A stretch of 64,000 bases of DNA from a virus. Shown piece by piece: positions 202 to 63,919 of the stretch. Each line of letters begins with the position of its first letter. The first letter of the stretch is position 1. A model generated the notes under the pieces. It searched no databases. It saw only the letters and a program-made list of their open reading frames with translations, and was not told the DNA's origin. The stretch spans positions 32,001-96,000 of IMG/VR virus record IMGVR_UViG_3300045988_184160; one strand, written 5' to 3'. Position numbers and translations under genes: made by a program.

Positions 202-645
202 ATGAATAACTATCAGATGCCCCCCTACGGACAGCAGCAGATGGGGTGGATGTCAGGTATGGGGGGTGTCACCAACCCCCCACATGGGCAGCAATTTAAT
301 CAGGAATACCCACCACCCCAAGCACGCCAACGGTTCCCTCCTAAACAGGAAATTGTGGATTATATTCGGGGTAACCTGTTTGGGGATGAGCCTGTGACTG
401 TAAACTTGATTGAGCGTGACTGGGACAGGGATTATATTCCGCATTTTTGTTGCCTACCGTTTTTTGAGCACCGGTTGCAGAAGAATTTTTTCAGGATTGA
501 TATACCAGGGTGGGGTCCCTATAACGTGGATTTTTATATGCACCGTGGGTACCACCAGGTTTTTGGGTTCTGCAATACTTTAACGATTGTTGATGACACT
601 ATCCCCACCAGAGATACTGCTAGCGGGTATTCGACGTTTATGTAA
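202..645 (+). CDS. hypothetical protein with a Q/P/G-rich N-terminus
   Basis: 147-aa ORF with ATG start. N-terminal ~50 aa are low complexity (PPYGQQQMGW...PPPQARQ). Followed by a hairpin and T6. Confidence 0.55.
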   Translation: MNNYQMPPYGQQQMGWMSGMGGVTNPPHGQQFNQEYPPPQARQRFPPKQEIVDYIRGNLFGDEPVTVNLIERDWDRDYIPHFCCLPFFEHRLQKNFFRIDIPGWGPYNVDFYMHRGYHQVFGFCNTLTIVDDTIPTRDTASGYSTFM

Positions 646-648
646 AAT

Positions 649-702
649 TCCTTATAGTATGATAAAGACAACAAGTTCATTATTGTACTATAAGGATTTT
701 TT
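649..702 (+). terminator. stem-loop plus T-tract (terminator, possibly also an operator)
   Basis: Perfect 11-bp inverted repeat TCCTTATAGTA (649-659) / TACTATAAGGA (686-696), 26-nt loop, then TTTTTT at 697-702. Confidence 0.45.
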
Positions 703-704
703 AT

Positions 705-6630: not shown

Positions 6631-7682
6631 CAACCAAACTACCGTCACCACGGAAGATAGTGCAGAAAACCCCTGTCGTTCGGGATATTAACTACTTGAG
6701 TAAGCCGCGTAACCTAGACGAGGACGATAAAAAGTACGCCCAGAAATATTTGACGAAGATAATTATTTGGTGTCTTGCTATTATCGCCGTACTCAGTGTG
6801 GCATCGTTGATGCTTTTCACCAGCATCAACGATGACGCGAAAATCGACAAAGAAACACAGAAAGAACTACTGCAAAACCCCACCGCAACCACCACCCCAT
6901 CATACGACCGAGCATCCGCATACCCATCCGTCGCATCCAACGGATCAACCTACACCGTGCCTGACGTGTCCAACAAACCATACGTGGACAAGTCCAGTAT
7001 CACCACCCACGGGTTCACCCTCTACAAGGCAGGGGAGAAAAAAGACTCCCTCATCTCCGAGAGGCTAACACGGTCACTCATCCAAAAATACGGTGACGCA
7101 ATGCCAAGCGCCGCATCAGTCGCAGCATTCCCTATCGTCGGTGAAGACACCACTAACTCCGCTTACCTCATGTTCGACCCGCAGAAACAGTTCGTGTTCT
7201 CCATCAAAGAAACCCCCGATTCAGTGGAAGACAACTACTACACCGCCACCACAGGCGCAGAACAAGACTACCAACGCTGGGTAGACATCTACAAGACATC
7301 CCACGAAGTAGTAGACATCCTCAGGGACACCCCCACAGGGCTCATCAGCGACCACACCCAAGCAACTAACCTAGACGCACTGCAAGCCAACACGGGCACC
7401 ACGGTTGTGATGATCCTAGACCCCAACAAAACCACTGTAGGGGACAAAAAACAAGCCCTAGAGGTGGCACGGAAACTAGCTGCACAAATCAAGCCACGCA
7501 AAGACTTCGATATTGAAATCCGGTGGGCGACCAGCAGGGACGAATGGGTAAAAACCAAAGCCCACAAAATCAGCAAAAACGAACACTTAGGCGTTGATGA
7601 AACCCTCCGCAGGCTAACACCAGCCCTGCAGGGCGATACGATCACCATCACCACAACCCCCAAAACTGTCCGCACCCAATAA
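6627..7682 (+). CDS. membrane-anchored protein (single N-terminal TM), function unknown
   Basis: Start trimmed to the ATG at 6627, which overlaps the upstream stop. TM segment IIIWCLAIIAVLSVASLMLFTSI, then a T/S/P-rich ectodomain. Confidence 0.55.
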   Translation: MTTKLPSPRKIVQKTPVVRDINYLSKPRNLDEDDKKYAQKYLTKIIIWCLAIIAVLSVASLMLFTSINDDAKIDKETQKELLQNPTATTTPSYDRASAYPSVASNGSTYTVPDVSNKPYVDKSSITTHGFTLYKAGEKKDSLISERLTRSLIQKYGDAMPSAASVAAFPIVGEDTTNSAYLMFDPQKQFVFSIKETPDSVEDNYYTATTGAEQDYQRWVDIYKTSHEVVDILRDTPTGLISDHTQATNLDALQANTGTTVVMILDPNKTTVGDKKQALEVARKLAAQIKPRKDFDIEIRWATSRDEWVKTKAHKISKNEHLGVDETLRRLTPALQGDTITITTTPKTVRTQ

Positions 7683-7772
7683 AAGTTATGACGAAACAAT
7701 TTGCGGACACCAACCCGCGACGTGTAACCTTGAAGAGCAATGTCACCACGGTAGCGAAAACCAGCCACCACA

Positions 7773-9611
7773 ATGGTGACAAGCAAATCAAGAACCACGA
7801 AAGAAAGAACCATGAACCAAGAAAACAGCCCAGGAACAGCACTAGCAAACGCGAAATTTCGTGCCCTTAACGCGCGTTTAAACGCCGCCGAGAAGGCGAA
7901 GGAATACTTGTTGGAGCGTCCCACGGACAAGAAGCGCACCTTCTTTGAGGAATATTCCAACTGCGGCATCCCTCAAGCTAAACTTGCGAACGACCCTAAA
8001 GCTTCCATGCTGGTCTATATCCCAAAAATTGTTCTTAACCCCGAATGGTTCAAGAAACCTGTTGTGGAGATGCAGGATAACTACGACAACCTGTCACTTG
8101 CGGCGTATCTTCTGCATAAGGTCACTGATCCTGAGAAGCAAGTCAAAGGTAAAAACGGTAAGAAATTCCCTGCGAAGGTAGCTAATATCCGCTGCACAGC
8201 GCACACAAAAAAGGAAAAGCTGCATAAGATTTTTGCAGATTTCAAAGCTGAGGGGATAGATCTAGGGTATCCCGAAGATTTTGAGGGTTGTCTAGTCTGC
8301 GAGGAGGGCAAGAAGCTTCAAAAAACTTTCTGGGGTACGGTAGATGACACTGGCGTGGTTTATTCCGACCCGAAGGTTTACCCGTATCTAGAGCAGTGGA
8401 CAGCTGAATTTGTCATGAATAAGCTCAACGGTGAAGAGCTTGACCTTAAAAACCCTGAACAAAAGGGCGCGTTGCACAGTTATATAGGTGCCAAGATTAA
8501 AGGGGTAGATCCTAATCTAATCAAGACTCTTGGAAATGCGCATGGCGGTTCAGTTCGCCCCATTAAGAGTGCTAAAACATCAGAAGGTTTCCCAGCTTCC
8601 CGCTTCGTCGTCCCAGTTTTCGTGATTACGGCAAAGCAGGAAAAAGTCACTAGGAAGAGCGCAGCGGGTCTTGAGCGCACCTTCATTGAAGACGTCCCTG
8701 TCTATAATGAGGATGGGACCCCCGCCGTTCAGCTGATGTTCCTTGATTTAACCGGCAAATTCTTGATTAATAATTTCGTCAAGAAGTACGCTAAAACTGT
8801 TGCTAGTGAGTCATCCTCAATGAACCAAGAAACCGAGGCTGATTTCATCATCGGGAAAGCCTATAGGCATGCTCTTGAGCGCGGAGATAGTGAGGAAGAA
8901 GCGAAGGAATACTCGAACAAGATTTGGGAACTTAAGAAGACGCTCCCTAATTCTTTTGGGGTTATTTCGCATAGTTCAGTCTCAGATAATGGAGTGGAAT
9001 TTAAAGAAGGATACACCTTTGATCGCCATAACTGGGATAGGGAATTAGATGATGTTTCTGGTTTCAATAACCCAGAGATCGTGAAGATCCGCGAATACTG
9101 CAACCATATTGCAGAAAATTTCTCTATACCTGGCGATGAGAGCGGCAAGACTTGGGCGCTGACCGGTAATATTGTGCAGATGCTTGTGAATGACGCAAAT
9201 CTTAAGCATTACAATGAGATCAAACAGCTCATTAAGCCTGTTGTGGATTATTGGGAAAAGCACCATCTTGAGGTTATTCAGAAGAATCGCGCATCTTATG
9301 GTGCTGGCTCTACTGTTGTGGAGCCTGAACCTAGGAAGGGTGTCATGTTCTCTGCTCGTCGCCAGAATGTGGAGGAGTCTAGCGCCCCTGCCCCTGAGGT
9401 TACCGAAGCCCAGTGGCTACCTCTTGAGCCTCCGGTTCCCGCGACACCAGCTGCCCCTGTTATTCAGGCGCAACCCGAGCCTGCAGCAGTGGCTTCTGCT
9501 AGTGTGCAACCTGTACAGCAGGTGGAAGACCCGATCCCTGCCGCCCAGAGTAACCCAGTAAGTAAACCTGAAACCACCAAAAAATCAGGTGAAGACCCTT
9601 TCCCCTTTTAA
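7773..9611 (+). CDS. hypothetical 612-aa protein with a P/A-rich linker and an SSB-like acidic C-terminal tip
   Basis: Long ORF; an alternative start is the ATG at 7812. C-terminus ...PEPAAVASASVQPVQQVEDPIPAAQ...GEDPFPF*. Confidence 0.6.
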   Translation: MVTSKSRTTKERTMNQENSPGTALANAKFRALNARLNAAEKAKEYLLERPTDKKRTFFEEYSNCGIPQAKLANDPKASMLVYIPKIVLNPEWFKKPVVEMQDNYDNLSLAAYLLHKVTDPEKQVKGKNGKKFPAKVANIRCTAHTKKEKLHKIFADFKAEGIDLGYPEDFEGCLVCEEGKKLQKTFWGTVDDTGVVYSDPKVYPYLEQWTAEFVMNKLNGEELDLKNPEQKGALHSYIGAKIKGVDPNLIKTLGNAHGGSVRPIKSAKTSEGFPASRFVVPVFVITAKQEKVTRKSAAGLERTFIEDVPVYNEDGTPAVQLMFLDLTGKFLINNFVKKYAKTVASESSSMNQETEADFIIGKAYRHALERGDSEEEAKEYSNKIWELKKTLPNSFGVISHSSVSDNGVEFKEGYTFDRHNWDRELDDVSGFNNPEIVKIREYCNHIAENFSIPGDESGKTWALTGNIVQMLVNDANLKHYNEIKQLIKPVVDYWEKHHLEVIQKNRASYGAGSTVVEPEPRKGVMFSARRQNVEESSAPAPEVTEAQWLPLEPPVPATPAAPVIQAQPEPAAVASASVQPVQQVEDPIPAAQSNPVSKPETTKKSGEDPFPF

Positions 9612-12040: not shown

Positions 12041-12829
12041 GTGCAAATAATGTCCACGATAGATAAATTCACACAAAAAACAGTTTTCAGGCCCGAGCAG
12101 GATTATTTCTACCGTCTACCCCCACCAGTTTTCTCTGATGATGTTGCGGTTTTCATGGGCGGTGTCCTGCAGCATAAGGACGACCTCACCGCTTATGACC
12201 GTGAGCTTCTTCGAGGGTACCAGCCGGATAGTGAGCCTGATGAGCCGGTTTTGACGATTGTGAAGGACGGTGACGGGTATTTGTGGTCTTTACTGAAAAT
12301 CTTGATGGTTCCGGTGTTGTCCACGCTACTGTTTCCCGCGTTGAGGTGGGTTGGGGTGGATTTGACTGTTGGTCCGCTTCTGTGGGTCCTGTCGCTGTGT
12401 TTCATCTGGGTTGTGACTGGGTTGTATGCTCTATGGTTTTTGCAGGGGTATACGCAGAAGCATCTTGCGTCGCTTTATGTTTATTCTGTGGCTGAGGATG
12501 CGGAGGTTATGGAGCGCCGGCGGTTCCTTATTGGTGAGTGTGAGCGGTTGAGTAAGGAAATTGAGGGGTTGGAGTATCAGCGGGATAAGGTTCTTGAGGT
12601 GCGTAAGGCTGAGTTGGAGGCTTTGCCTATTAGTGTGGTGACTGTTGGTTCTCGCGTGGTGAGTAGGGACGCGGCGGTTGCTGATGTTGTGGGTGAGATT
12701 GGGCGTGTTGGTGCTGAGATTGAGGTTTTGAGGGGTAGGTTGTCGGGGTTGCAGGATTCGTTGGCGTATTCTGCTTTGGCGTTTTTGTCGTCTGATGAGG
12801 GGAGCCGTAGAGCGTATCTTGCGAAGTGA
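12041..12829 (+). CDS. membrane protein with a C-terminal coiled coil, function unknown
   Basis: 262 aa; GTG at 12041 or ATG at 12050. Three hydrophobic segments (LKILMVPVLSTLLFPAL, LLWVLSLCFIWVVTGLYALWFL). Heptad-like ERLSKEIEGLEYQRDKVLEVRKAELE. Strongly G+T-rich. Confidence 0.55.
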   Translation: MQIMSTIDKFTQKTVFRPEQDYFYRLPPPVFSDDVAVFMGGVLQHKDDLTAYDRELLRGYQPDSEPDEPVLTIVKDGDGYLWSLLKILMVPVLSTLLFPALRWVGVDLTVGPLLWVLSLCFIWVVTGLYALWFLQGYTQKHLASLYVYSVAEDAEVMERRRFLIGECERLSKEIEGLEYQRDKVLEVRKAELEALPISVVTVGSRVVSRDAAVADVVGEIGRVGAEIEVLRGRLSGLQDSLAYSALAFLSSDEGSRRAYLAK

Positions 12830-12843
12830 GTTAGCGACCTTTT

Positions 12844-12887
12844 GGGGTGTCACCAGTGTTTATTCATGGTGGCACCCCTTATTTTAT
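12844..12887 (+). terminator. rho-independent terminator
   Basis: 12-bp stem GGGGTGTCACCA (12844-12855) / TGGTGGCACCCC (12867-12878) with one G-U pair, 11-nt loop, then TTATTTTAT. Confidence 0.75.
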
Positions 12888-14095: not shown

Positions 14096-15259
14096 ATGAA
14101 ACACAGAGAACATAAAACATTCAACGGGTCAGCCCTCATATTCGGTGACCTGCACCTATTCGTGAAACAAGACCACCGCCGCCCCACAGGGTTAAGCTCA
14201 CACAAAGACTACAACGCCAACAGTAGGCACAACATGCGGATGGTTCTGCGGCAGATCGAAGAGTTCCAAGGCGCGCACCCTGGGGAGCCTCTGATGGTGT
14301 TCTTCCTCGGGGACCTGTTCGGTGTGGATCAGCACGTGCTGACCGATAACACGCAGAGGTCAGAGGCAGCAGAGTTCCTGTCCACCATCAAGAACCTTAC
14401 GGGGCACCCCGCTCAGATGGTGTGGGGTAACCACGACCGCAGTTCACAGCAGGTCTCCGAGTCTGATCTTTTCATGCAGCTTGGGTTACTGGAAAACCCG
14501 TCGTGGGTTGATTTCACTGATGCTGACGGTAATATTCATTGGCGCTGGCACCTAGTGAACAATAACGACTATGAGCAGCCTATCCCCACGGTCAGGCACG
14601 GGGCACCGTCCGACATGGGCACCAAACCTGATGGTGGTAAGGCGCGCCGGAAAACCCTGCCTACGGTTGAGCATGTGGCGAACGGTGTGCTTGGGCATAA
14701 CCATTATTATGCGGGTGAGGATATGCGCCCGCATCCTGGGGGTGGCTGTATTGATTTGACGACTCTCGAATCTTTCAAGGATGTTATCGCTGTTATTTAT
14801 GGGGATACGCATGAGCCGTCTAGTGACGGGTTCTACCCGTACACCTTGAACTCTGCTGGTGCTGGGCATGAGCGTTACGCTATGGGGCTTGGTTCACCTG
14901 CACGTACTTCACGAGCACAGGATTATGAGGATGCTTATGTGATGTGGTTCTTGTCCCCTGCTGTGTCGGGTGGTGAACGGTTTGATTTTGAGGTTCACCG
15001 GTTTGGTGCGCGCCCTGCGTCTGAGGTTTTCCTTCCTGAGGAGAGGACTTTGCTTAGGGATGTGGGTGGCGTGGTTCGTGAGGCTACGGATGATGAGCGT
15101 CGGACGATGCGGGGTATTCTGCAGGGTTTGAACGGGAAAACGTTTGATGGGGAAAATATTTCTTCTGCGATAGACGAGGTTCTAGCCGACGACCTGCTAG
15201 CTGCGCGAGTAGCTAAAGCCCACATACAAGCAGTACGGGACACCCACGCCGCCGGATAA
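14096..15259 (+). CDS. Mre11/SbcD-type calcineurin-like metallophosphoesterase (nuclease)
   Basis: 387 aa. Ordered motifs FGDLHLF, FLGDLFGVD, WGNHDR, LGHNH, YGDTHEP. Confidence 0.8.
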   Translation: MKHREHKTFNGSALIFGDLHLFVKQDHRRPTGLSSHKDYNANSRHNMRMVLRQIEEFQGAHPGEPLMVFFLGDLFGVDQHVLTDNTQRSEAAEFLSTIKNLTGHPAQMVWGNHDRSSQQVSESDLFMQLGLLENPSWVDFTDADGNIHWRWHLVNNNDYEQPIPTVRHGAPSDMGTKPDGGKARRKTLPTVEHVANGVLGHNHYYAGEDMRPHPGGGCIDLTTLESFKDVIAVIYGDTHEPSSDGFYPYTLNSAGAGHERYAMGLGSPARTSRAQDYEDAYVMWFLSPAVSGGERFDFEVHRFGARPASEVFLPEERTLLRDVGGVVREATDDERRTMRGILQGLNGKTFDGENISSAIDEVLADDLLAARVAKAHIQAVRDTHAAG

Positions 15260-15310: not shown

Positions 15311-16015
15311 ATGACCCCAGGAAACACAGGACAGGACATCCTGAAAGAATACGCCGCCACCCAAGCGAAGCTCAAAGAAATCGAACGTGAACGCGACCTC
15401 GCGGCACGGGACTTGGAACGAGCTAAGGCTGAGCTGCAGCAGATCGACCAGGAAATGAGGGATGCTAAAAACTACTCCCCCCTCGATGACATGCAGGAAA
15501 GAGGCGGGGCAGAGGCTTACCTAGCTTTCGTTATAAACTGGGTATCCCGCATGGAAGAAGCAACCCGCGAATCCATCACAGAAGCTAACCAGATCCTCGA
15601 AGCCTACAGGAGCGGTAACCTGACCGCGCTGAACGAGCTGCTGGGGGTTGAGGCGTCTGGCGAGATACCTGTTGAAGGACCGAGCGTTGAGGTTGCTGAC
15701 GGCACCGTACCAGCTGTGAAGTTTGAGGATGTTGCACCTGCTGGGTACAGTGCACCGGAAGAGCCTGTTTCCCCTGCCGTGGTTGCGGTGGAGGAGCCAG
15801 TAGCAGCGAAGCCGGAGCCCAGCCAAGCCGCGAGCGCACCCGCCCTCAACTGGGGAAACAGCAAAAACGACAGCACCAGCAACAACCATAACGGCACCCA
15901 AGACCCTTGGGAAAACTCAAATAACAACGGGTGGGGGTCTAACCTCTTTAATGACGGGGAAATGGGTGACCCAAGCGGATTCTTCTCCGAAGGGAATGAG
16001 CAGAACCATGAATAA
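15311..16015 (+). CDS. coiled-coil protein with a low-complexity tail, function unknown
   Basis: 234 aa. N-terminal heptads (KLKEIERERDLAARDLERAKAELQQIDQEMRD). N/S/G/W-rich C-terminus. Overlaps the next start (ATGAATAA). Confidence 0.5.
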   Translation: MTPGNTGQDILKEYAATQAKLKEIERERDLAARDLERAKAELQQIDQEMRDAKNYSPLDDMQERGGAEAYLAFVINWVSRMEEATRESITEANQILEAYRSGNLTALNELLGVEASGEIPVEGPSVEVADGTVPAVKFEDVAPAGYSAPEEPVSPAVVAVEEPVAAKPEPSQAASAPALNWGNSKNDSTSNNHNGTQDPWENSNNNGWGSNLFNDGEMGDPSGFFSEGNEQNHE

Positions 16016-23569: not shown

Positions 23570-23589
23570 GCTTCTTGGCTTTTTTGGAT

Positions 23590-23621: not shown

Positions 23622-23630
23622 ATGCTGCCT

Positions 23631-45448: not shown

Positions 45449-45470
45449 GGGCCTTACGGGCTGCTGATCG

Positions 45471-45509
45471 TAGGGGGTGGCGCTTTGCGTGTCACCCCCT
45501 ATTTCTTTA
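45471..45509 (+). terminator. rho-independent terminator
   Basis: Perfect 9-bp stem TAGGGGGTG (45471-45479) / CACCCCCTA (45493-45501), 13-nt loop, then TTTCTTTAT. Confidence 0.6.
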
Positions 45510-45616
45510 TGGTTTTTTCAATATTTATTCATAAAATAATTTGTTCTTCCGGTTTTAACGGAATGTTAGAATTGGTAGTAAGGAAGAATCTCGTCAATGA
45601 TTTGGAGTTGAATTTT

Positions 45617-46093: not shown

Positions 46094-46108
46094 CTTGGGT
46101 GCTATATG

Positions 46109-46142
46109 TCCCCAGTGGCTTTCGAGCTGCTGGGGATTTTTT
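46109..46142 (+). terminator. rho-independent terminator
   Basis: TCCCCAG..GC / GC..CTGGGGA stem (46109-46136), then TTTTTT. Confidence 0.65.
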
Positions 46143-46171
46143 GTGTCTACATCTCACCTAACTTGTTGGTT

Positions 46172-46200
46172 TTGATAATTATTGAAACATGGTCTACAAT
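46172..46200 (+). promoter_or_regulatory. near-consensus sigma70-type promoter
   Basis: TTGATA (46172-46177), exactly 17 nt spacer, TACAAT (46195-46200). Lies about 40 nt upstream of the ATG at 46239. Confidence 0.6.
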
Positions 46201-46238
46201 CTTATATAGGAGATAACAACCCGAAAGGACATAAGACC

Positions 46239-47727: not shown

Positions 47728-47763
47728 ATGAAAAAACGAAAAAACAAAAATGGAAGGAGAAAA

Positions 47764-48294
47764 ATGAAACCCGAAACATGCAAAAAACTCTGGGAAACAC
47801 TAGGAAAAACAGACAAAGCACGACAAAACAAATACACGCCACTAACCCAAGAAGAAGCTGAACAATGGTCAAACTACCTACACAACATCCCAGACGACCC
47901 TAAAAATAACAACCACTACATCCAGCTCATAGTCAGCACGATTCTCAGCAAAGAACTCCTAGTCATACCAACACTGGGGCACCTCAAAACAGCTTGGGAA
48001 GAAATCTCTCAAAAAATCAACATAGCACTAGATCATATGGGCAAAATTGAAGAGAGGATTCAAAGGATACTCAACGACCAAGAGACTATGGAGAATGAGA
48101 TGCGTCAAGCACTTGTGAACTCGTATCTAGCTCATTATGAGTCTCTACCTGAGGAAGTGAAGAAGATGTACCCAAAGAGGGACTTTTCAGAATTTTTAGA
48201 AGGAGGAAAAACCCATGAAGTAGCTAGGAAACGGGGAGAAAGGGTAAATTCACCGCTTGGTGATTGGCGTAGTATGATGGTTATCCCTGAGTGA
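47764..48294 (+). CDS. hypothetical protein (176 aa)
   Basis: Start trimmed to the ATG at 47764, after a GGAAGGAG RBS. Confidence 0.5.
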   Translation: MKPETCKKLWETLGKTDKARQNKYTPLTQEEAEQWSNYLHNIPDDPKNNNHYIQLIVSTILSKELLVIPTLGHLKTAWEEISQKINIALDHMGKIEERIQRILNDQETMENEMRQALVNSYLAHYESLPEEVKKMYPKRDFSEFLEGGKTHEVARKRGERVNSPLGDWRSMMVIPE

Positions 48295-50012: not shown

Positions 50013-50070
50013 GTTTACAAAACAAGGAAAAAACACGTAAACCGAACCACAGAAACAAGCAAAAGAAATC

Positions 50071-51000
50071 ATGGCAAAAACACTCAACCAATACCTGCGG
50101 CTCGACCCGCCCACGCAGACACAGAAAGCACTCATCGTCGGGCTGCAACCCACCCAAAAGAAAAACCGCAACGGGTGGGACATTATCTGCCTTATCACAG
50201 ACCCGGAAACCGGTCAGAAAAAGGTAGAGAAATTCCAGGCCCCAGACCACCAAAAAATTAATGGTCACACGATCCTCGCGAACCTCCTCCCCCAAGACGA
50301 CATCAACATCACCGCCAACGAACAAGGCATACACATCAGTGGTGGCGTGAAAACAACTGGTGTGGAAATCACGTACACAACCTACCGTGGGCGGAAAATC
50401 CTGTTCACCGCCGAGAAAACAGGTGAAGAGGAAACCCTGTACGGGGTGGACGCGGCGAAAGTTTTCCTTGAATCCTACGCATATTTCGGGTTTAACGGGT
50501 CATTGCCTTACATGGTTGGGGCGTATGCGATCTGCGGTAATAGTGCTGACCGGCTCGTTGAGATTATCCACAGCGTGGATATTATGCGTGACACGTACAG
50601 TCCTGAGTATTCGACGGGGTTCGGTTCCCTTGACGGCATTAACTATTATCCTGTGGATAGTGGCACCCTCAAGGTTGAGAGCCTACGAGCTGTTGCCAGT
50701 GGGGAGAAAAAAGAAGAAATTTTTACGGGGTTCAATATGTCCCCCACGTCCACCCCCGTACCTGCTATGGTGGTTCTAGAAGACAACAGCACATACCGCA
50801 CAGAGACCCCAGATTGGGGTGAAGAGCACGTCGTGTTCAATAGCGCTGGGGTTACCCACAGTGTTTTCACCACCCCAGAGGTGAGCGCACTCTACAAGGG
50901 TGTCCTTCCAGCGCTACCGATGCTCCGTAAAGACTGTGTGATTGTGACTGGTGAGCAGGATGGTGTGAAAACCCTGTTGAGGGTATTCACGCAGGACTAA
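50071..51000 (+). CDS. hypothetical protein (309 aa)
   Basis: Long ORF with ATG start. No family recognised. Confidence 0.55.
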   Translation: MAKTLNQYLRLDPPTQTQKALIVGLQPTQKKNRNGWDIICLITDPETGQKKVEKFQAPDHQKINGHTILANLLPQDDINITANEQGIHISGGVKTTGVEITYTTYRGRKILFTAEKTGEEETLYGVDAAKVFLESYAYFGFNGSLPYMVGAYAICGNSADRLVEIIHSVDIMRDTYSPEYSTGFGSLDGINYYPVDSGTLKVESLRAVASGEKKEEIFTGFNMSPTSTPVPAMVVLEDNSTYRTETPDWGEEHVVFNSAGVTHSVFTTPEVSALYKGVLPALPMLRKDCVIVTGEQDGVKTLLRVFTQD

Positions 51001-53183: not shown

Positions 53184-54482
53184 ATGCGAAATACACGATT
53201 CACCTACAACTGGCTAAGAGACTGCAAATGGTATTACCATTCGCTGAAAATAGCTTCACTGTACCGGATGGTGGATTTGGGGTACCTTCTGGACGCCCAT
53301 GTGTTCACGGTGGATTACAATGTTCGTCGTCTGCTTGTGGATAGTGGGTATGTTAGGGTCAGTGATGACGGCAGGTTTGAGGTGTCGGCTGGGCTGCTTT
53401 TTGAGCATATTGTGTCCTGCTCGTCGTTGAGTAGTGATTACCGTGAAATAGTTTCTGTCTATGAGGGTAAGGGTTTTGTTCCTGTTGAGTCTGAGGTGCT
53501 TTGGGGTTCTGATGATTTCATTGTCCTCCTGTACCTTCACCTGTCTCTGCAGGAATGCACTGAATCTCTCGACAGGTTGAGTGGGTTCTTCACTAAACGG
53601 ATCGGTGACGACAGTATCAACGAGTCCGGTAAGCTGGGTGCAAAATACAGGGACGGCATGAGCATGGTTGTGTTGCAGGAGGCGACCCAGGCGTCCGTGC
53701 AGGCTGTGACTGCGACACCACCGAAGTATATGACTGTGAGAACCGTTGAACGTGGGGCTGCCGCCCCTACTGCACCCGCTGGGTATGAGCTGCTGGGTGT
53801 CCATGACCTCCCCCATAGTGTGCAGTACTGGTACCATAATGCGCCTGACTCTACGGACACCACGTTCACCCACACCCCGCCCGTGCTTTGGGGTTCCACA
53901 GCGGAGGGGCAGCTGTCGATGTCCATGCTGTACAGTGGGTTGTGCGGGTACCTGCTCCCTGGGGGTGTGGTGCATAAGGTGCTGGATGATGAAGGGTATA
54001 CAGGTAACATTTCTGTTGTGCCTATCACGGGGTACCAGTCCACGAAAGGTAACCCAGTGGAGTTTTACCCTGTTGAAGACCTCACGCGGGAATACCCAGG
54101 AACTTTCCGCCAATATGAGAAGCATGACTGGTACGGTTCGCTGATGCGTCTAAAAGAGATCCAACCGGTTCCGGGGCATAAAATATCTGTTGACCTGTTC
54201 AGTTCCCTCATCACGGATTTCAGGTTATCCAGTAAGCCTTTCGAAACAGGGAGGCTACTCGATGGTGTTGTGACCCGAAGCAGATCGTTAGACTTCGCGC
54301 CGCACCCAGTGTCCACGAGGTACGATATGCGCACACTGGGAGACTCTTTCAACTACCTTTTCCCTAGTGTTATTGAGGGGCTACAGTCAGTAGCGGAACA
54401 AGTGGACCCTGCTAGTACCATCAACCACCAGAGCACTTTTCTAAGCAACCCGATAGGAGCACCAAAGAATGCCGCAGTATAG
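53184..54482 (+). CDS. hypothetical protein (432 aa)
   Basis: Long ORF. The 289-aa antisense ORF over it looks like a composition artefact. Confidence 0.55.
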   Translation: MRNTRFTYNWLRDCKWYYHSLKIASLYRMVDLGYLLDAHVFTVDYNVRRLLVDSGYVRVSDDGRFEVSAGLLFEHIVSCSSLSSDYREIVSVYEGKGFVPVESEVLWGSDDFIVLLYLHLSLQECTESLDRLSGFFTKRIGDDSINESGKLGAKYRDGMSMVVLQEATQASVQAVTATPPKYMTVRTVERGAAAPTAPAGYELLGVHDLPHSVQYWYHNAPDSTDTTFTHTPPVLWGSTAEGQLSMSMLYSGLCGYLLPGGVVHKVLDDEGYTGNISVVPITGYQSTKGNPVEFYPVEDLTREYPGTFRQYEKHDWYGSLMRLKEIQPVPGHKISVDLFSSLITDFRLSSKPFETGRLLDGVVTRSRSLDFAPHPVSTRYDMRTLGDSFNYLFPSVIEGLQSVAEQVDPASTINHQSTFLSNPIGAPKNAAV

Positions 54483-54970: not shown

Positions 54971-57133
54971 ATGAGAAGCGAAACTGTTGTTTCACTGGGG
55001 CACAAGTTTACCGACAGGTACAAAAAATTCGTTGGTGAGCTCGTCAAAAAAGCTGTGCTAAACAAGACGGATATTAAGCTACCTACGATCTTCGACATTC
55101 TCACCCAGCCCGACGATTTCAATGTTGATGGGTTCACTAGCTACAGCATCTTCTGTGACCTCACCTACCGGTACATTTCCCTCATGTGGGGGATGGACAT
55201 ACCCAGGAACACGCTCATCAGCCGTGTCACAAAACATATCTACGAGAAAGAAAACAACGAATACCTCAACCACCTCTGCGACATCTACGGCAACCCCGAA
55301 AACCCAGAAGACGTAAAGATCATCCCCGACAGCAAAGAAAGCCCCGAACGGTTATTCACAGAAGCAGTGAACAACTGGGTCAAAGACCGTATACAAGCAG
55401 GAAACCTAGAAGACGCGCTCCCGTTCCTAGTCTTCGCCGAGCAATGCTGGATGTTCCACGGCGCGGGGTACTGGTACACCCCCAACAACAGGAAAAACGC
55501 CATATACCCCGGTAGGCACAAGCTGTACAAAACAGACCCGACCCGTATCATCGCACAGAACTTCTCAAAAACCAAAGCAGCGAAAGAACAAGCAGCCACA
55601 CCCACGAACGAGGAAGCCGTAAAACTTTTTCAGAAGATAATAACCGCGAACCTTAAAGACACCATCATCAAAACCAACAGGGTTAACGCAACCTACACCA
55701 TCACACCCAACGGGAAAGATGACAGGTACACGATAAAGTCCGCATCCTCAGACCTCAAAAAAAACAGTCTCGTGGAGCCGCCCGAGATCGTCCCGCACAT
55801 GGTGGTGCAGCAGCTCTTCAAACTATTGAAAGACACAGCAGAGAAAACACCTCTGCTCGTCACCCAAGACACACCCATGATGTCCACCCCGAAGCAGCGG
55901 GTACTATCATTCGACTACGCACTCCACGAAAGGTACCGGTCAGCAAGCCGGAAACCTATCGCACAAGCCCTGCAGGCTAGGGCGTACATGCCTGTGCTGG
56001 GTGCCCCACGGTACACGCTGGGTATGACGAGGGTGGATGCTTTCTCTATCACGGGGACACGTGTCCTCACGAGTGCTGAGCAGGAACACCCAGAAGAAGA
56101 TAATGTCGGGTACTGGGTTTCACCTGCGAGCGTTGATTTGAACGAGCTGGTGCTTGAGAGAATATCCGCTTGGGGTTTTGACCGCGCGAATAACCTGAGG
56201 CAACGGAACAAACCTGCCATGTGGCGTAGCTACCTTGATTTTTTCAGGAACGCCCACCACGAGAACTGCCGTGCAGTGGATGAAACGTACACGCCCGCGC
56301 AGCTACAGGGACTCATCAAATACCTATCTCGGGAAGAGAAAGTAGCTTTCCGATCCATGCTACCACCGGAAGCGATAGACTACGCCCGTGTACTAACCCA
56401 TGATATTTTCAATGTTTTTGAGAAGATCGAGATTCCTGAGGCTGAAACAGCGGTGGCTGCTCGAAAGAATTTCGCTACGATGCTCAGGGGCGGGATCTAT
56501 AAGGTCACTTTCTTGAACCAGAGCGATAAACTGAACTCCGTGTTCTGCACCTTGAACTGGAATATCCTGGATTTCCTGTGTGGTGGGCGCAGGATGTACC
56601 GTGAACCATCGTATTTCCGTGTGCTGGCGACTAAGATCCGGGATAACACGGACCAGTTCAGTAATGACAGCTGGTTCGTTTCTCAGGGTGGGGAGCTGAT
56701 GGGTAGCGGCGTGGTTCCTGATGGTAGGACTATTGAGTATTTAAAGGATTGCTACGATCTTCGGTTGTCTAGTCCGGAGTTGACGCTAGATAAGTTTTGG
56801 GCGCGGGTTAACAAGAACTCGGTGGTGTATGAGGTGTCTTTGAGGGTTTTCAAGGATTTACTTCGTGTCGCCGAGGTTGATGGGGAGCTGAACGGTCCAG
56901 CTGATTTACTGTATCTTGTATCTCAGGTTGAGCATTGTGGATTTACGTATTCTCATGGCGCGTCGTTGTATTCTGTGGAGGATCGGGAGAGGGAGCTTGT
57001 GGGTTCTGATGTGGTGACGGTTCGGAATGTTTTTGCGCCTCCTTTTTCTTCGAGGAATAATGCTTTTGTTCAGGTGAGTGCTCGTAAAGTGGTTGATGTT
57101 GTGAGGGTGGCTAAACCACCTAGCATTCCTTAA
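54971..57133 (+). CDS. hypothetical protein (720 aa)
   Basis: Long ORF. No NTPase, polymerase or nuclease motif recognised by eye. Confidence 0.55.
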   Translation: MRSETVVSLGHKFTDRYKKFVGELVKKAVLNKTDIKLPTIFDILTQPDDFNVDGFTSYSIFCDLTYRYISLMWGMDIPRNTLISRVTKHIYEKENNEYLNHLCDIYGNPENPEDVKIIPDSKESPERLFTEAVNNWVKDRIQAGNLEDALPFLVFAEQCWMFHGAGYWYTPNNRKNAIYPGRHKLYKTDPTRIIAQNFSKTKAAKEQAATPTNEEAVKLFQKIITANLKDTIIKTNRVNATYTITPNGKDDRYTIKSASSDLKKNSLVEPPEIVPHMVVQQLFKLLKDTAEKTPLLVTQDTPMMSTPKQRVLSFDYALHERYRSASRKPIAQALQARAYMPVLGAPRYTLGMTRVDAFSITGTRVLTSAEQEHPEEDNVGYWVSPASVDLNELVLERISAWGFDRANNLRQRNKPAMWRSYLDFFRNAHHENCRAVDETYTPAQLQGLIKYLSREEKVAFRSMLPPEAIDYARVLTHDIFNVFEKIEIPEAETAVAARKNFATMLRGGIYKVTFLNQSDKLNSVFCTLNWNILDFLCGGRRMYREPSYFRVLATKIRDNTDQFSNDSWFVSQGGELMGSGVVPDGRTIEYLKDCYDLRLSSPELTLDKFWARVNKNSVVYEVSLRVFKDLLRVAEVDGELNGPADLLYLVSQVEHCGFTYSHGASLYSVEDRERELVGSDVVTVRNVFAPPFSSRNNAFVQVSARKVVDVVRVAKPPSIP

Positions 57134-57151
57134 ATACTCTTATTTGTTCTT

Positions 57152-57187
57152 ATGTGGCGTATCTATTAAAAAATAGGTACGCCACAT
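57152..57187 (+). terminator. strong stem-loop (terminator candidate, weak T-tract)
   Basis: 16-nt arms ATGTGGCGTATCTATT (57152-57167) / AATAGGTACGCCACAT (57172-57187) with 1 mismatch, loop AAAA. Confidence 0.55.
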
Positions 57188-57294
57188 TTGTCATTTCAGG
57201 AACAAAAACACCGGTATTATTACTTTTAAAGTAAAAATACCCACATAAACAACCATAGGAAAACAAAAACACCCCAGGAGGTGAAGACAAAACA

Positions 57295-57777
57295 ATGTAC
57301 GACGAAGAAGAAAACGAAGAAACGGGTAACAGCAACCCATCACCATTCGACCGTCATAGACGAGGAATACGACCCAGGCCCGACGACAGAGAAGAATCCC
57401 CCTTCAGCAGGGGGCGGACCTCCCGAGGGCGACCACAACCCTGGGGCGACGATGAAGACACCGACTTCCCACCAAGGCACAGGGGAATGCAGAGAGGAAG
57501 ACCAGGGCGAAACCCCTACGAAGAACGTGAGGAATACGACCCCAGAAGCCGATTCCAAAATAATCGTGGATTCAACCCGCGACACGACCCAGACCCAAGA
57601 AACCCCTGGGAAAGCGCACAGGAAGAAGACCCCGCCAGTGAAGAAACAGACATTAGGGAAAACACGGTAGTCCCAATGTCAAAACCGAACAACACAAAAG
57701 AAGTAGAGCAAAAAGAAATGAAAAAATCAATCGGGTTATACGCAAAACTAGTGCGCATCCTCGGTGGGGAAATGTGA
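57295..57777 (+). CDS. R/D/E/P-rich, probably intrinsically disordered protein with a short hydrophobic C-terminal helix
   Basis: 160 aa, GGAGG at 57277-57281. Composition RHRRGIRPRPDDREESPFSRGRTSRGRPQPWGDDEDTDFPPRHRG... ending IGLYAKLVRILGGEM. Confidence 0.45.
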   Translation: MYDEEENEETGNSNPSPFDRHRRGIRPRPDDREESPFSRGRTSRGRPQPWGDDEDTDFPPRHRGMQRGRPGRNPYEEREEYDPRSRFQNNRGFNPRHDPDPRNPWESAQEEDPASEETDIRENTVVPMSKPNNTKEVEQKEMKKSIGLYAKLVRILGGEM

Positions 57778-57846
57778 AACCCATCCCCAAAAAATAATAT
57801 AAGATAAAACAAGAACACAGCATAAAGCCCCTCGGAAGAAAACCGA

Positions 57847-59175
57847 ATGTACACACTCTTACCAGAAAAACAGCACAACAGGCTTCAACAGATCGAGCAA
57901 GAATACGAAGCGGGTAGATTACACAGGTACCCGCCGCACATTATCGAGAAAATACGGAAAACATATCTCGACAAATGCGACAAACATATTCGCTCACTCA
58001 CCACACCAACCCTAGTAGCGGATATAAACATACTGCAGAAAGTATCTGACGAAGCCACAGCTGTTGTGAAGCGGCTACAAGGGCACCTGCCTGAGGGGTT
58101 CACCCCGTTCCCCCAGAACGGTGGGGCGCTCCGAGTATCATTCTGGGCAAGTAAAGACGGTAAAGAAATCAGGTGGCGTGTCAGACCAAACTCCAAGACA
58201 GGGCTAAAAACCCAAGGCGCACAACTGAACACAGACCTGTGCGTCAAAACAGGTAAAGGCAAAGTCGCCTCAAAGAAAATATGGGGAGAAGCACTCAGAG
58301 CCGCCGCCACCCAACTATGGGAGCTGTCAATCGGGCAGTTCGCGGCACACAACTGTGCGGCAGTGAACCAGCTACTCACGGAAGCCACCACGCGGGCTGG
58401 TGCACCATACACTCTTTCAGTGGTGCCAGAAATTTTCGCTACACCCAAAAACGTGGGGTTGTTCGAAGACATCTCAATGAGCGGTGTGGTGATCGCGGTC
58501 AGCAACCAGAAAATCCTGTCCCTCCCTGCAGAATACGACGCTCAGAACGTGGAGAGTCTGAGAGAGGGCGTGGATATCCTAGAGGACGCTATCAGGGATA
58601 TAAAGCGTCAAGAAGGTAAAGCCCCAGAGGTGCGGGTGCGGCAGCTGACTATCAAGAAGAACATGTTGAAAGCGCACCTGAAAACCCTAGCTGGTGATGT
58701 TGCTTCCACTGAGTCTGCTGCGGAAGCTCGGGAGGAACTAGTGTCCGCATACGTGGACATTCTCAAGAAAACTCCCTCCCCCATATCGCTCATCAACACG
58801 CGGGGAGAAACACGCAAAAAACTTGTTGCCCTCACCGACCTGCCAGAGGATCATGTTCGGCAAGCAAGGACACTATTAGCGGACTCCACAGACAAGACCA
58901 TCAAAGCAGTGTACCAGTCCACGAAACCACCCATCCGTTCAGTCCTCGTGGAAGGAACCACCAGTGCTGGCGAACCGTGGATCGGGTCTGTGGGATACAC
59001 GGAGACAGACGGTGTGTGTGGTTTTGAAGAGAGAATCCCCGCAGTACACAAGAACCTGTGGGTCCGGCTCCCCGAAATTGATGTGGTTGCGGAAGCCCAG
59101 AAAATCTGGGAGGCAAGCGAGAACCGTAGTGAAGAGGCCCGTAAACGTTTCGGGTATGAGACGCAGGGAAAGTAG
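57847..59175 (+). CDS. hypothetical protein (442 aa)
   Basis: Long ORF with ATG start. No family recognised. Confidence 0.55.
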   Translation: MYTLLPEKQHNRLQQIEQEYEAGRLHRYPPHIIEKIRKTYLDKCDKHIRSLTTPTLVADINILQKVSDEATAVVKRLQGHLPEGFTPFPQNGGALRVSFWASKDGKEIRWRVRPNSKTGLKTQGAQLNTDLCVKTGKGKVASKKIWGEALRAAATQLWELSIGQFAAHNCAAVNQLLTEATTRAGAPYTLSVVPEIFATPKNVGLFEDISMSGVVIAVSNQKILSLPAEYDAQNVESLREGVDILEDAIRDIKRQEGKAPEVRVRQLTIKKNMLKAHLKTLAGDVASTESAAEAREELVSAYVDILKKTPSPISLINTRGETRKKLVALTDLPEDHVRQARTLLADSTDKTIKAVYQSTKPPIRSVLVEGTTSAGEPWIGSVGYTETDGVCGFEERIPAVHKNLWVRLPEIDVVAEAQKIWEASENRSEEARKRFGYETQGK

Positions 59176-59182: not shown

Positions 59183-60031
59183 ATGGCTGGTTTTGGTTTA
59201 GGAACAGGAAGCAGTGACAGCAGCTCGGGTGGTGAGAACAGGGGTGTGCCCTCCCGTCCCCTGCCGAAGCCTGTTGGGCAAGAAGAGATCCGTGACGGGG
59301 TGACACTACCGATGGGTGAGGTCATGCCTGACTATAAGCACGGTGATGACGGCTACACGTCCTGGGGTAGTGAATGGGGGGAGCCTCACGAAAATGTTGT
59401 GCCTGATGAGGATGAAGAAGAAAACCTTTTCACGCGCAGAAAAAAGAAGGAACGCAGCCCTGACGGTGAACCAGTTGAGAGTGGAGTGAAAAAAGCATGG
59501 GCGAAGATCGTCCGTAACAGCCTTGGGAAGCTTTTAGCGCTCGGGTGTCTCCTCGCTGCTGTAATTCTTCTCGTGCTTGTTGTGGTTTCCAATAACCAGA
59601 ACCACGACTCCGCTACACCAACACCAGAAACTAAAACCTCCACATCCTCCGCAGACACCAACACCGAAACCAGTGCCGAAGAAACCCAGAAACCCAGCGG
59701 AGACAGCAACCACGACTGGCAAAAAATAGACCCGCCCGAAGTGAAAGACACCTACAAGGCGCGCGGCATGGTTGAAGAACGAGAAGTATACAAGGACCCT
59801 AACACCCAGACCGTCGTATACGCCCTCAAAATGTCCCTCGTGAAAGAAGGCGACTCAAGCAACGCCCTCACCACACGGTTCTACACCACCAAAAGCGGGT
59901 GGGACGAAGCGGTAGTGGGGAACCTCTACTCGGTTACCTACAGTGGTGACGACAAAGGGAACCTTGTGATCGTTTCCATCGACAAATACAAGGCACCAGC
60001 TAAGAACAGCGGGAAGGAGGAGAAACACTAG
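59183..60031 (+). CDS. single-pass membrane protein, function unknown
   Basis: 282 aa. TM segment LLALGCLLAAVILLVLVVVS, then a T/S/E-rich linker and a C-terminal globular part. Confidence 0.55.
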   Translation: MAGFGLGTGSSDSSSGGENRGVPSRPLPKPVGQEEIRDGVTLPMGEVMPDYKHGDDGYTSWGSEWGEPHENVVPDEDEEENLFTRRKKKERSPDGEPVESGVKKAWAKIVRNSLGKLLALGCLLAAVILLVLVVVSNNQNHDSATPTPETKTSTSSADTNTETSAEETQKPSGDSNHDWQKIDPPEVKDTYKARGMVEEREVYKDPNTQTVVYALKMSLVKEGDSSNALTTRFYTTKSGWDEAVVGNLYSVTYSGDDKGNLVIVSIDKYKAPAKNSGKEEKH

Positions 60032-62534: not shown

Positions 62535-62542
62535 GCACCAGA

Positions 62543-63094
62543 ATGAAAGTAAAACCAGGAAAACCACAAAAAACCGCCCGTGTGGGCAGAACCATAGCGC
62601 CCACACGACAAGACACGCGCCTCAGTCAAAGTGACTATGTGCAGTACCTCTCACAGAAACTAGGTATCCACAAGACACGTGTCAAAAACATACTTGACAG
62701 CTACCATGCCGTAGCCATGCGGGATATCCAAGAATACCAACAAGTGTACGTCTACAAAGACATCCTAGCCACCAACAAAAACGCCAACCCAGACAACAGT
62801 GGTGTGCTCAGCAGAACCTTCGCAGCGCAATGCGGTGACGCAGCCGCTAAGGCAGGCGTACTCGGGTCTGAAGCTAACCGTGTCGTCTCAGCCTACGTGG
62901 AAACCATCACTAAACAAGCATCCAGTGAGACAGGTGCGTGCGTTTTCAAAACATTCAACCTCAAAAAACAAGGGGGACAATACAGCATCAGCAAAACACC
63001 GCATATTGACCTCCCCAACAAAGGCAACGGAGTGGTGTTCTCCGCGAAAACCCTCAACAGCCGCGCAAGACACACAGGTCAGGGCAAGAGGTAG
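62543..63094 (+). CDS. possible DNABII (HU/IHF-like) DNA-binding protein with two HU-like helical segments
   Basis: 183 aa. DYVQYLSQKLGIHKTRVKNILDSYHAVAMRDI and LGSEANRVVSAYVETITKQASSETGACVFKTFNLK both follow the HU pattern (L-S-x3-A/V-x3-V/L-x-A/S-F/Y-V/x-E/x-T/x-I...G...V...F). Similarity is judged by eye only. Confidence 0.35.
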   Translation: MKVKPGKPQKTARVGRTIAPTRQDTRLSQSDYVQYLSQKLGIHKTRVKNILDSYHAVAMRDIQEYQQVYVYKDILATNKNANPDNSGVLSRTFAAQCGDAAAKAGVLGSEANRVVSAYVETITKQASSETGACVFKTFNLKKQGGQYSISKTPHIDLPNKGNGVVFSAKTLNSRARHTGQGKR

Positions 63095-63097
63095 GCT

Positions 63098-63919
63098 GTG
63101 GAAGGGAAAACTCACGTCATCGGCGGTATCAGTGCCGCACTCACAGGCACCCTGCTCTCCCAGAACGGTGTGACCGTCACACCACTGTGGGGTGGTGAAG
63201 GCATGTCACACACACTTACCGCTTTCGAGTACACGACAGCCTGCTTCACGGTGCTCGTATCAACCTACGTTTTCTCGATGGTGGGCGCAAAAATCCCAGA
63301 CCAAGACCATAACGCGCGGGCGATGCCGTACAGGGACCCGTTGGGGAAGCTCGTGTGGAGAGCCCTTCACCCTGGGAGCATGATACCCGCGCTCAAGAGG
63401 TTTGATGCGAAACACCGGTCATGGCAGACCCACAGCGACCTCACCCTGCTCGTGCTACTGGGGGCGAACATTGCGTTGTATTCGGGTCTGCTGCCGATAC
63501 CCGCGAACTCCCCCATTGGTGGGATATGGTCAATTATTTTCCTTGGGTTATCGCTCGGGGTTTTCTCACACTTGTTCCTTGACGCTATCACCAAGGAAGG
63601 TGTGTGGCTGGTGGTTTTCGGTGTTATCCCAAACAAGATATTCAGGGCGCGGGTGTTTCCTGAAAAGTTTCGGCTTGTCCCTAAAAGATCGAAATACTTC
63701 AAAACCGGTTCAGGGAAGAAAACCAGTAACGGTGTGGAAGGTAAAGACCATAAAGGCAGGACATGGGAAGACCTTGTTAACTCCCGCCTGTCGTTCTACA
63801 ACAACCTTGTGCTTGCCCTCATCATCTGCTCATGGGCTGTTTACCTGCTCACAGGGGAGAACCTGATTAACGGGGTCACAAAAATTTTGGCAGTAATGCG
63901 GGGGGAGGCTGTTCTATGA
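63098..63919 (+). CDS. YdjM/DUF457-like membrane-bound metal-dependent hydrolase
   Basis: 273 aa, GTG start. N-terminal GKTHVIGGISAAL, DQDH, HRSWQTHS and SHLFLDAITKEGV elements. Multiple TM segments. Confidence 0.6.
   Translation: MEGKTHVIGGISAALTGTLLSQNGVTVTPLWGGEGMSHTLTAFEYTTACFTVLVSTYVFSMVGAKIPDQDHNARAMPYRDPLGKLVWRALHPGSMIPALKRFDAKHRSWQTHSDLTLLVLLGANIALYSGLLPIPANSPIGGIWSIIFLGLSLGVFSHLFLDAITKEGVWLVVFGVIPNKIFRARVFPEKFRLVPKRSKYFKTGSGKKTSNGVEGKDHKGRTWEDLVNSRLSFYNNLVLALIICSWAVYLLTGENLINGVTKILAVMRGEAVL

Follow-up and report, generated by a model that had tools for sequence, protein, structure and literature searches.

Conserved A+C-rich and G+T-rich coding-strand blocks at operon-type boundaries of a putative jumbo phage-like element

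Why should the coding strand of a phage-like genome alternate, often within a single gene, between stretches almost free of G and T and stretches almost free of A and C? The question is raised by a 64,000-nucleotide (nt) stretch of DNA, positions 32,001 to 96,000 of IMG/VR virus record IMGVR_UViG_3300045988_184160 (hereafter the window), which is part of a 157,880-bp metagenome contig. We treat the source as an uncultured jumbo phage-like element of ~250 kb, and almost all of its genes share one strand. A preliminary description had noted the alternation and offered deamination of exposed DNA, mosaic recombination or selection for unstructured 5′ mRNA as possible causes. The pattern proved to be real, to act at the nucleotide level, to belong to the host element and to reset as described, while deamination and mosaicism did not hold up as its main causes. 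Our preferred reading, to which we give a probability of about 0.4, is that the blocks belong to the ends of transcription units as a compositional feature peculiar to the lineage, held in place by a fixation bias that is most likely selection.

Strand composition was measured as keto skew, (G+T−A−C)/N on the coding strand, and was compared with 200 protein-preserving synonymous-codon shuffles within each gene. The standard deviation (SD) of G+T in 200-nt windows was 0.087 against a binomial expectation of 0.035, about 2.5 times chance, and the skew reached ±0.45 across 300–600 nt. GC skew and TA skew shifted in parallel, with G+C and purine content nearly constant. Window over-dispersion and synonymous shuffles thus agree on the patchiness first seen by eye, and the hand counts of G+T reported with it were all exact (20/60, 17/60, 40/60, 38/60, 59/60 and 23/100). 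In most long genes the SD of third-position keto skew lay above that of the shuffles, with z = +15.8 in the helicase gene (25992–28079), +12.4 in gene 54971–57133, +11.3 in gene 19016–23569 and a median of +2.5 among 49 open reading frames (ORFs).

The helicase gene illustrates the size of the effect. Third-position G+T rises along the gene from ~5% to ~85–90%, made up of a change in T/(C+T) from 0.03 to 0.82 and in G/(A+G) from 0.12 to 0.89, and codon positions 1 and 2 track this trend. Amino-acid usage shifts with it, as had been proposed: the TNQKPH fraction falls from 0.39 to 0.18 while GVLFWC rises from 0.23 to 0.33. The shift is weaker or missing in distant orthologues. Non-coding flanks also carry the skew of the adjoining blocks. 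Third positions beyond the shuffles, with positions 1 and 2 and the non-coding flanks following, bear out the idea that the bias acts on nucleotides.

Blocks were called with a three-state hidden Markov model (HMM), using ten triplet-shuffled sequences as control. The model returned 19 blocks (12 A+C-rich and 7 G+T-rich) covering 9,433 nt, or 14.7% of the window, against 0 nt in the shuffled controls. Strong blocks therefore make up only ~15% of the window; they are strongest at 12–28 kb and 45–58 kb, and the flanks beyond the window show weaker skew. The blocks are as follows.

6818..7856, plus strand: A+C-rich block (G+T 0.33) inside gene 6546–7682 and into the start of 7773–9611, from the HMM and skew profile.
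12247..12872, plus strand: G+T-rich tail (G+T 0.72) of gene 12041–12829, from the HMM and codon-resolution profile; third positions are 18–20/20 G/T, and it ends at a terminator hairpin in the 12829/12980 gap.
14920..15130, plus strand: shorter G+T-rich block (G+T 0.71) near the end of gene 14096–15259, before the 15259/15311 junction.
16001..16131, plus strand: short A+C-rich block (G+T 0.20) spanning the overlap of genes 15311–16015 and 15951–16934 (HMM).
19432..19677, plus strand: A+C-rich block internal to the gene for a 1517-amino-acid protein (HMM).
23305..23761, plus strand: G+T-rich tail at the end of the same 1517-amino-acid gene (HMM); it contains the non-coding 59/60 G+T tract 23631–23690, past the terminator hairpin 23586–23618.
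23762..24124, plus strand: A+C-rich head, leader plus 5′ part of gene 23870–24622 (HMM); it directly adjoins the preceding tail, forming the strongest switch in the window (d = +1.02).
25201..25720, plus strand: G+T-rich tail of the two-gene unit 23870–25703; third positions 15–19/20 G/T.
25988..26661, plus strand: A+C-rich head of the UvrD-type helicase gene, from the HMM and codon-resolution profile; a plateau of ~660 nt at 0–3/20 third-position G/T is followed by a climb to 16–19/20 by 28079.
34048..34336, plus strand: A+C-rich block near the start of gene 33928–35745 (HMM).
45161..46184, plus strand: G+T-rich tail, the end of a 1630-amino-acid gene and the whole of 45485–46093 (HMM); it passes terminator 45470–45502 without reset and ends past terminator 46108–46137.
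46185..46941, plus strand: A+C-rich head of the helix-turn-helix (HTH)-regulator unit 46239–47370 (HMM); it begins beside a predicted sigma-70-like promoter, TTGATA-17-TACAAT, at 46172–46200 (10/12 match).
47731..48028, plus strand: A+C-rich head of unit 47764–49451 (unknown gene, dUTPase, SSB; HMM).
50017..50338, plus strand: A+C-rich head of gene 50071–51000, after terminator 49978–50005 (HMM).
53266..53524, plus strand: G+T-rich block (G+T 0.71) near the start of gene 53184–54482 (HMM).
55197..55766, plus strand: A+C-rich block that starts ~230 nt inside gene 54971–57133, not at an intergenic boundary.
56672..57167, plus strand: G+T-rich tail of gene 54971–57133, ending within terminator hairpin 57152–57187.
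57168..58012, plus strand: A+C-rich head of the unit starting at 57295, directly adjoining the preceding tail (HMM).
59589..59894, plus strand: A+C-rich block in the middle of gene 59183–60031 (HMM), beginning just past a stretch that encodes a hydrophobic (membrane-type) segment.

The arrangement of these blocks follows the predicted operon structure. A+C-rich heads of 300–850 nt, with a coding strand nearly free of G and T, lie downstream of large intergenic gaps, and G+T-rich tails, nearly free of A and C, occupy the last ~0.5–1 kb ahead of such gaps, even within single genes. The keto block at 53266, at a gene 5′ end, is an exception to this rule. The strongest keto-to-amino switches fall in larger gaps (12829/12980, 23569/23870, 25703/25992, 28079/28128, 46093/46239, 47370/47764, 49451/50071 and 57133/57295), most of which carry intrinsic-terminator-like hairpins, with sigma-70-like promoters where these are recognisable. 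The blocks line up with predicted terminators and, in one case, with a strong sigma-70 match; 23631–23690, 55197 and 19432 are exceptions. At codon resolution the blocks often appear as plateaus with step-like edges; in unit 23870–25703 third-position G/T goes from ~2/20 to ~11/20 to ~18/20. Among the units for which an A+C-to-G+T drift had been listed by eye, the overall pattern stood, with a weak drift in 202–645 and a tail without a head in 12041–12829.

Resetting of the skew at unit starts, as first described, was found where a start follows a gap of 90 nt or more; tightly coupled cistrons did not reset it. Averaged over the 16 starts after such gaps, the skew fell from about +0.1 to −0.2 and recovered over ~600–700 nt, whereas the 19 tightly coupled starts showed no reset. 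Resets were confined to junctions with gaps of 45–90 nt or more carrying terminator hairpins, and terminator 45470–45502, which lacks a following promoter-type gap, did not reset the skew. The amplitudes to the left and right of a boundary were anticorrelated (r = −0.45, compared with +0.24 at tight junctions and +0.12 at random positions), and the pattern is therefore dyad-symmetric about the boundaries.

In 64 kb, switches that exceeded the shuffle maximum numbered 15 from keto to amino and 11 from amino to keto. So many polarity switches, with the 19 blocks, exclude a single replication origin, and segment inversion fails because almost all genes lie on one strand, both as argued previously. 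The IS607-type insertion at 9660–11902 is compositionally flat and is missing from a strain 93% identical to the window, so that the pattern is indeed a property of the host element.

Next we consider whether the blocks are conserved. A metagenome scan supplied nine strains of the window lineage, 3.6–10% apart, and four of a sister lineage whose helicase shares 69% amino-acid identity and whose GC is 41% against 50% in the window. The same block skew was present at the same positions in 9/9 window-lineage strains. In syntenic position the skew profile correlated at r = 0.87 with a strain of 96% amino-acid identity and at r = 0.68 with the sister lineage, where blocks occupy the same codon positions and heads are somewhat shorter. 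Distant clade members (helicase 35–37% identity, contigs of 130–285 kb) show a uniform mild coding-strand G+T excess and no gradient. Accordingly, the SD of G+T was 0.080–0.103 in the window lineage and 0.054–0.088 in the sister lineage (0.066–0.077 at longer loci), compared with 0.036–0.050 in about ten distant clade members and 0.032–0.047 at about twenty unrelated loci. With blocks in the window and sister lineages and none in the distant clade, the trait therefore arose in the common ancestor of the first two.

The two lineages are diverged to saturation at synonymous sites. At conserved 4-fold sites third-base identity between window and sister was 0.331, where 0.266 is expected from composition, and it was not higher inside blocks. 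At the positions of the window's heads the sister lineage has 69% A+C (baseline 41%), and at those of the tails 80% G+T (baseline 59%). By a rough estimate, the trace of some past event would by now retain about a quarter of its amplitude in each lineage, and the window still carries a skew of about ±0.7 at 4-fold sites. A decaying relic is thus a poor explanation, and the retained skew implies a force at work in the same places in both lineages until long after their split.

Is this force a mutational bias? Changes private to one strain (singletons) were taken as safely polarised and were scored in blocks with |skew| > 0.2. In the window lineage 143 singletons eroded the skew and 58 reinforced it (binomial p = 2e-9), spread over all strains, with per-site rates of 0.053 (eroding) and 0.045 (reinforcing). 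In blocks with |skew| > 0.3 the counts were 63 eroding and 14 reinforcing, and in the sister lineage 120 and 83, with per-site rates of 0.048 and 0.056. If a mutation bias were at equilibrium, eroding and reinforcing changes would have to be equally numerous, with a reinforcing per-site rate 2–4 times the eroding one. Substitutions biased toward the skew, the spectrum of a replication-driven asymmetry, were thus found in neither the window nor the sister lineage. Nor did the coding strand show the G+T excess throughout that marks transcription-associated asymmetry, since the 5′ parts of units have 0–15% third-position G+T.

No neighbour-base context was detected either: T/(C+T) and G/(A+G) shift in all four preceding- and following-base contexts, and the shift is as large in purines as in pyrimidines. 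There is accordingly no APOBEC-like deaminase footprint, that is, a preferred context such as TC or CC with changes of C only. Divergence in the blocks was not raised over the rest, which argues against the boundaries as hypermutation hot zones; in the three most extreme blocks third-position divergence was 2–8 times below that of adjacent mid-parts, with positions 1 and 2 unchanged. Clustered reinforcing bursts were absent from the nine terminal branches. Equal per-site rates, no context and no raised divergence together leave steady strand-specific deamination unsupported. Patchy C>T plus A>G deamination, as first suggested, therefore lacks support as an ongoing process, and the lack of a directional transition excess relative to homologues counts against it as a cause.

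Persistence of the blocks despite symmetric mutational input points to a fixation bias: eroding changes arise freely and fail to persist. Selection is the more plausible form of this bias, and biased gene conversion the less plausible. On this reading the sense strand would be kept A+C-rich downstream and G+T-rich upstream of promoter-type boundaries, in a lineage-specific manner, and one observation that supports it is that block position is tied to operon-type boundaries. Selection would act on the base alphabet of a single-stranded nucleic acid, be it the ends of the mRNA or the strand of DNA that transcription displaces. A head made of A and C alone would be unable to self-pair, a tail of G and U would be limited to wobble pairs, and the two alphabets would be mutually complementary. 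Candidate roles, which are speculative, include open 5′ regions, R-loop control, Rho action or termination, and generic head–tail pairing. In its most far-reaching form the idea is of a previously undescribed operon “end code”, in which selected A/C mRNA heads and G/U tails override codon and even amino-acid choice over hundreds of nucleotides and so would control how single-stranded RNA or DNA behaves where transcription units end; we give this a fair chance, though less than even. The earlier proposal of selection for G-poor, unstructured 5′ mRNA fits the heads at promoter-type boundaries and leaves the tails and the length of the heads unexplained; neither do the heads occur at every start and over only tens of nucleotides, as start-proximal structure avoidance or a codon ramp would have it.

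Several observations weigh against selection on transcript ends. Blocks begin inside ORFs at 55197, 19432 and 59589, and the G+T-only tract 23631–23690 lies beyond a terminator. The dyad symmetry would be no less expected from a process acting on DNA than from one acting on transcripts, and selection for unstructured RNA alone would not predict G+U tails. In the population data, blocks have relatively more rare variants, a constraint-like sign, as is the lowered third-position divergence of the three most extreme blocks. However, the eroding-to-reinforcing ratio was flat across derived-allele counts, skew-changing variants at 4-fold sites were not depleted relative to skew-neutral transversions (68:24 vs 444:144), and the old-to-young variant ratio in blocks was lowered equally for skew-neutral changes. 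Where skew-changing transversions did look depleted, the effect is probably exaggerated by highly divergent mosaic segments among the variants used for comparison. For the scaled selection coefficient, a value near 2 is at the edge of the confidence interval, and the transition/transversion, frequency-spectrum and McDonald–Kreitman-type tests are weak because only 13 strains were available and divergence is strongly mosaic.

The same evidence can be set against two DNA-level explanations. Boundaries may be recombination or replication-restart sites, the blocks arising either by selection for G+T-rich 3′ tails as recombinase substrates or by biased heteroduplex repair. RecA-family proteins prefer GT-rich single-stranded DNA (ssDNA). 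This explanation shares the fixation-bias evidence with selection on transcript ends and accounts for the dyad symmetry, the tract 23631–23690 beyond the terminator and the internal switches. We nevertheless consider it unlikely: the blocks show no enrichment of Chi-like or other oriented oligomers, biased conversion would call for a contrived repair rule specific to both base and strand, mosaic junctions relative to strain L032 (~19700, 22400, 30000 and 31500) lie mostly away from the boundaries, and the reset depends on promoter-type gaps. A little less likely still is boundary-anchored, strand-specific damage to ssDNA, in which exposed 3′-ended strands would accumulate C>T and A>G, possibly in rare bursts, after 5′-to-3′ resection at breaks or nicks or at points of fixed fork convergence, leaving keto skew to the left of the boundary and amino skew to the right. 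Such damage would explain why pyrimidine and purine transitions move in parallel, as well as the dyad symmetry (left/right r = −0.45) with its direct keto-to-amino junctions, and the 0.3–1 kb scale would resemble that of resection tracts. Among the encoded proteins are a Rad50-like ATPase, a UvrD-type helicase, a RecJ-like DHH protein, SSB and, from a gene upstream of the window, a metallophosphoesterase, and resetting gradients are known from APOBEC3-edited human immunodeficiency virus (HIV) DNA (PMC1635257). Against it, recent changes show no bias toward the skew in either lineage (143 eroding vs 58 reinforcing in the window lineage), and steady added mutation predicts up to ~1.9-fold higher third-position divergence in blocks, where that observed was equal or 2–8 times lower. 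Clustered reinforcing bursts on the nine terminal branches and a sequence-context signature are lacking, distant relatives have the helicase and DHH genes without the pattern, and block edges are often step-like rather than decaying.

Import of blocks from lineages with opposite coding-strand bias would be in keeping with the highly mosaic divergence of the strains, which ranges from 0.3% to 28% per 300 nt (0.003–0.28). Relative to L032, sharply bounded segments of ~25% divergence occupy 19800–22500 and 30000–31500 in genomes that otherwise differ by 4–10%, and the switches at ~19678, the right edge of block 19432–19677, and at 22403 coincide with the ends of one such segment, so that module exchange contributes some edges. 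As the main cause, in the role once proposed for it, mosaic ancestry is highly improbable in view of the in-gene gradients, which are smooth or stepped and in the helicase gene monotonic, and of blocks at the same codon positions in a saturated sister lineage without extra third-base identity. No sampled relative comes near 5% or 95% third-position G+T, and the blocks line up with operon-type boundaries. Neither are the blocks compositional islands, in the sense of step-like segments absent at the same position in relatives; the IS607 insertion is the one true island. An assembly or sequencing artefact might be suspected in a metagenome assembly of ~8x coverage, but its chance is negligible, as it is refuted by replication: assemblies made independently in different studies show the same blocks, at 90–100% identity and in a 67%-identical lineage, and conserved helicase motifs are encoded through both block types. 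Selection at transcription-unit ends remains the reading we prefer.

Some narrower candidates were tried and rejected. A specific tail–head RNA stem, such as an RNase III-type site, was not supported, duplex energies having z of −1.0 to +0.8 relative to tract-internal shuffles; the z of −2.85 for the fold of the whole region arises because composition is segregated, and from nothing more. No inverted or direct repeats were found that would make up the blocks. Palindromic 6-mers occur at 54% and 4-mers at 72% of shuffle expectation across the window, a depletion that suggests heavy restriction-avoidance pressure and that is milder for 6-mers in relatives (65–79%). Palindrome or restriction-site avoidance was nevertheless rejected as the cause of the blocks, since local skew explains only ~5% of this depletion.

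Three of the boundaries carry other sequence features. In the gap before the helicase gene (25704–25972) a TGATGTCAT-like motif recurs about nine times, often at intervals of 21 or 43 nt; the array looks like a set of candidate protein-binding sites of operator or iteron-like type, and the skew is neutral across it. Just past two HTH-protein genes, the region 47379–47760 contains three perfect tandem 23-mers, GGGGGTACGTCCCATGATGGGAC, each with a 7-bp palindrome, followed by a stretch of ~300 nt at 28% G+C, a layout that may be described as origin- or operator-like; these repeats are also the exact end point of the 243-kb contig that IMG/VR has for the 93%-identical strain. The hairpin TGTCCCCCTAAGTTGGGGGTAAC (23703–23725), located between tail and head and unique in the window, is kept with one substitution in the sister lineage at 69% amino-acid identity and is probably a functional element of the 23569/23870 boundary. 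In the distant clade members L033 (6660–8015), L034 (5630–7920) and L035 (6370–8010) the position of this 300-nt boundary is occupied by a gene-free stretch of 1.3–2.3 kb with a strongly C-depleted coding strand, a keto skew of +0.3 and 22–35% G+C. It could be an ancestral non-coding element or a precursor of the tail/head arrangement.

The element itself resembles nothing in the GenBank phages and PLSDB plasmids that were searched. Identical helicase genes occur on 14 contigs, human-associated samples among them, and the protein clusters of the helicase have 222 and 139 members. Besides the 243-kb contig of the 93%-identical strain, IMG/VR holds a 263-kb contig of the sister lineage, for which a circular assembly is suggested because its ends split the helicase gene. 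A 24-kb megablast query found no match among plasmids (PLSDB) or phages, and no tblastn match of the helicase in GenBank phages exceeded 27% identity. Most window proteins had no family in Pfam or PHROG. Recognisable products include the Rad50/SMC-like ATPase, the UvrD-type helicase, the RecJ-like DHH protein, an actin/MreB-like protein, FHA, PP2C and Ser/Thr-kinase proteins, a giant Ig-domain protein, HTH regulators, dUTPase and SSB, with the metallophosphoesterase, an HU-like protein and a phage lysozyme encoded upstream of the window. No deaminase or reverse transcriptase was seen among the annotated proteins, no known RNA families or tRNAs were found, and neither the Neisseria DNA uptake sequence nor the Haemophilus uptake signal sequence was present. 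The actin/MreB-like gene lies near those for the FHA-domain protein, PP2C phosphatase and Ser/Thr kinase (30076–31512 and 35822–40071), a signalling and cytoskeletal set unusual for a phage-like element; the sister lineage has kept the actin-like, PP2C and kinase genes, and distant clade members share the first of these. The IS607-type insertion (9660–11902, minus strand) encodes a serine recombinase and a split TnpB-like ORF, had no match in plasmids, and is recent, as judged by its absence from the 93%-identical strain. Immediately beyond the window there are three further TnpB/OrfB_IS605-type genes (L057 12125–13357, L057 14523–15650 and L059 1–122). Finally, in the ORF called at 5944–6630 third-position skew has an SD of 0.48 and correlates negatively with that at positions 1 and 2, and a keto-to-amino switch falls at ~6164; the reading frame or gene call here is probably wrong.

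Strand skews are usually read as passive footprints of replication or of transcription-linked mutation. Here the skew is anchored to boundaries, conserved over saturating divergence and not matched by the mutations that now arise. Were it maintained by selection, the synonymous sites of stretches hundreds of nucleotides long would carry previously unknown information on transcript or DNA-strand behaviour, a matter of interest for phage gene expression, codon-usage theory and the engineering of phages by recoding. If instead a recombination or replication process is responsible, the blocks would provide a map of break or initiation sites from sequence alone. In either case the SD of G+T is a simple statistic with which viral databases can be scanned for more cases.

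The full-text literature that was searched contained no description of operon-scale composition blocks in phages, and comparison has to be made with other systems. Replication strand asymmetry, with its leading-strand G+T excess, involves the same keto/amino variable and moves GC and TA skews together. Here, however, there are dozens of switches 0.3–18 kb apart, tied to operon-type boundaries, the amplitude reaches ±0.45 overall and about ±0.9 at third positions, and present-day substitutions do not reproduce the bias. In vertebrate mitochondria third-position A>G and C>T rise with the time spent as ssDNA, giving one mutation-driven gradient per genome that is set by strand-displacement replication. 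Both transition types likewise shift together and coding strands are G-poor and A+C-rich, but the pattern described here alternates in sign, resets many times and does not match the current mutation spectrum. The human genome has saw-tooth skew N-domains, which share the saw-tooth form; the present pattern is on a kilobase rather than megabase scale, with abrupt jumps down rather than up. At human gene ends GC skew is linked to R-loops (PMC3787257) and is similarly concentrated at the 5′ and 3′ ends of transcription units, whereas here the 5′ ends are G-poor instead of G-rich and the setting is a phage with unidirectional genes. APOBEC3 editing of HIV-1 DNA produces twin gradients with saw-tooth resetting at fixed sites on one strand (PMC1635257). 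Those gradients have one sign and a TC/CC context, involve C deamination only and arise within one infection cycle, in contrast to the context-free, evolutionarily stable pattern of the window, in which both strands are involved. In bacteria, the reduction of mRNA structure at start codons, or codon ramp, resembles the heads in being G-poor and unable to fold. It spans tens of nucleotides at every start codon, while the heads described here extend over 300–850 nt, occur only after promoter-type gaps, include non-coding leaders and are paired with G+U-rich tails.

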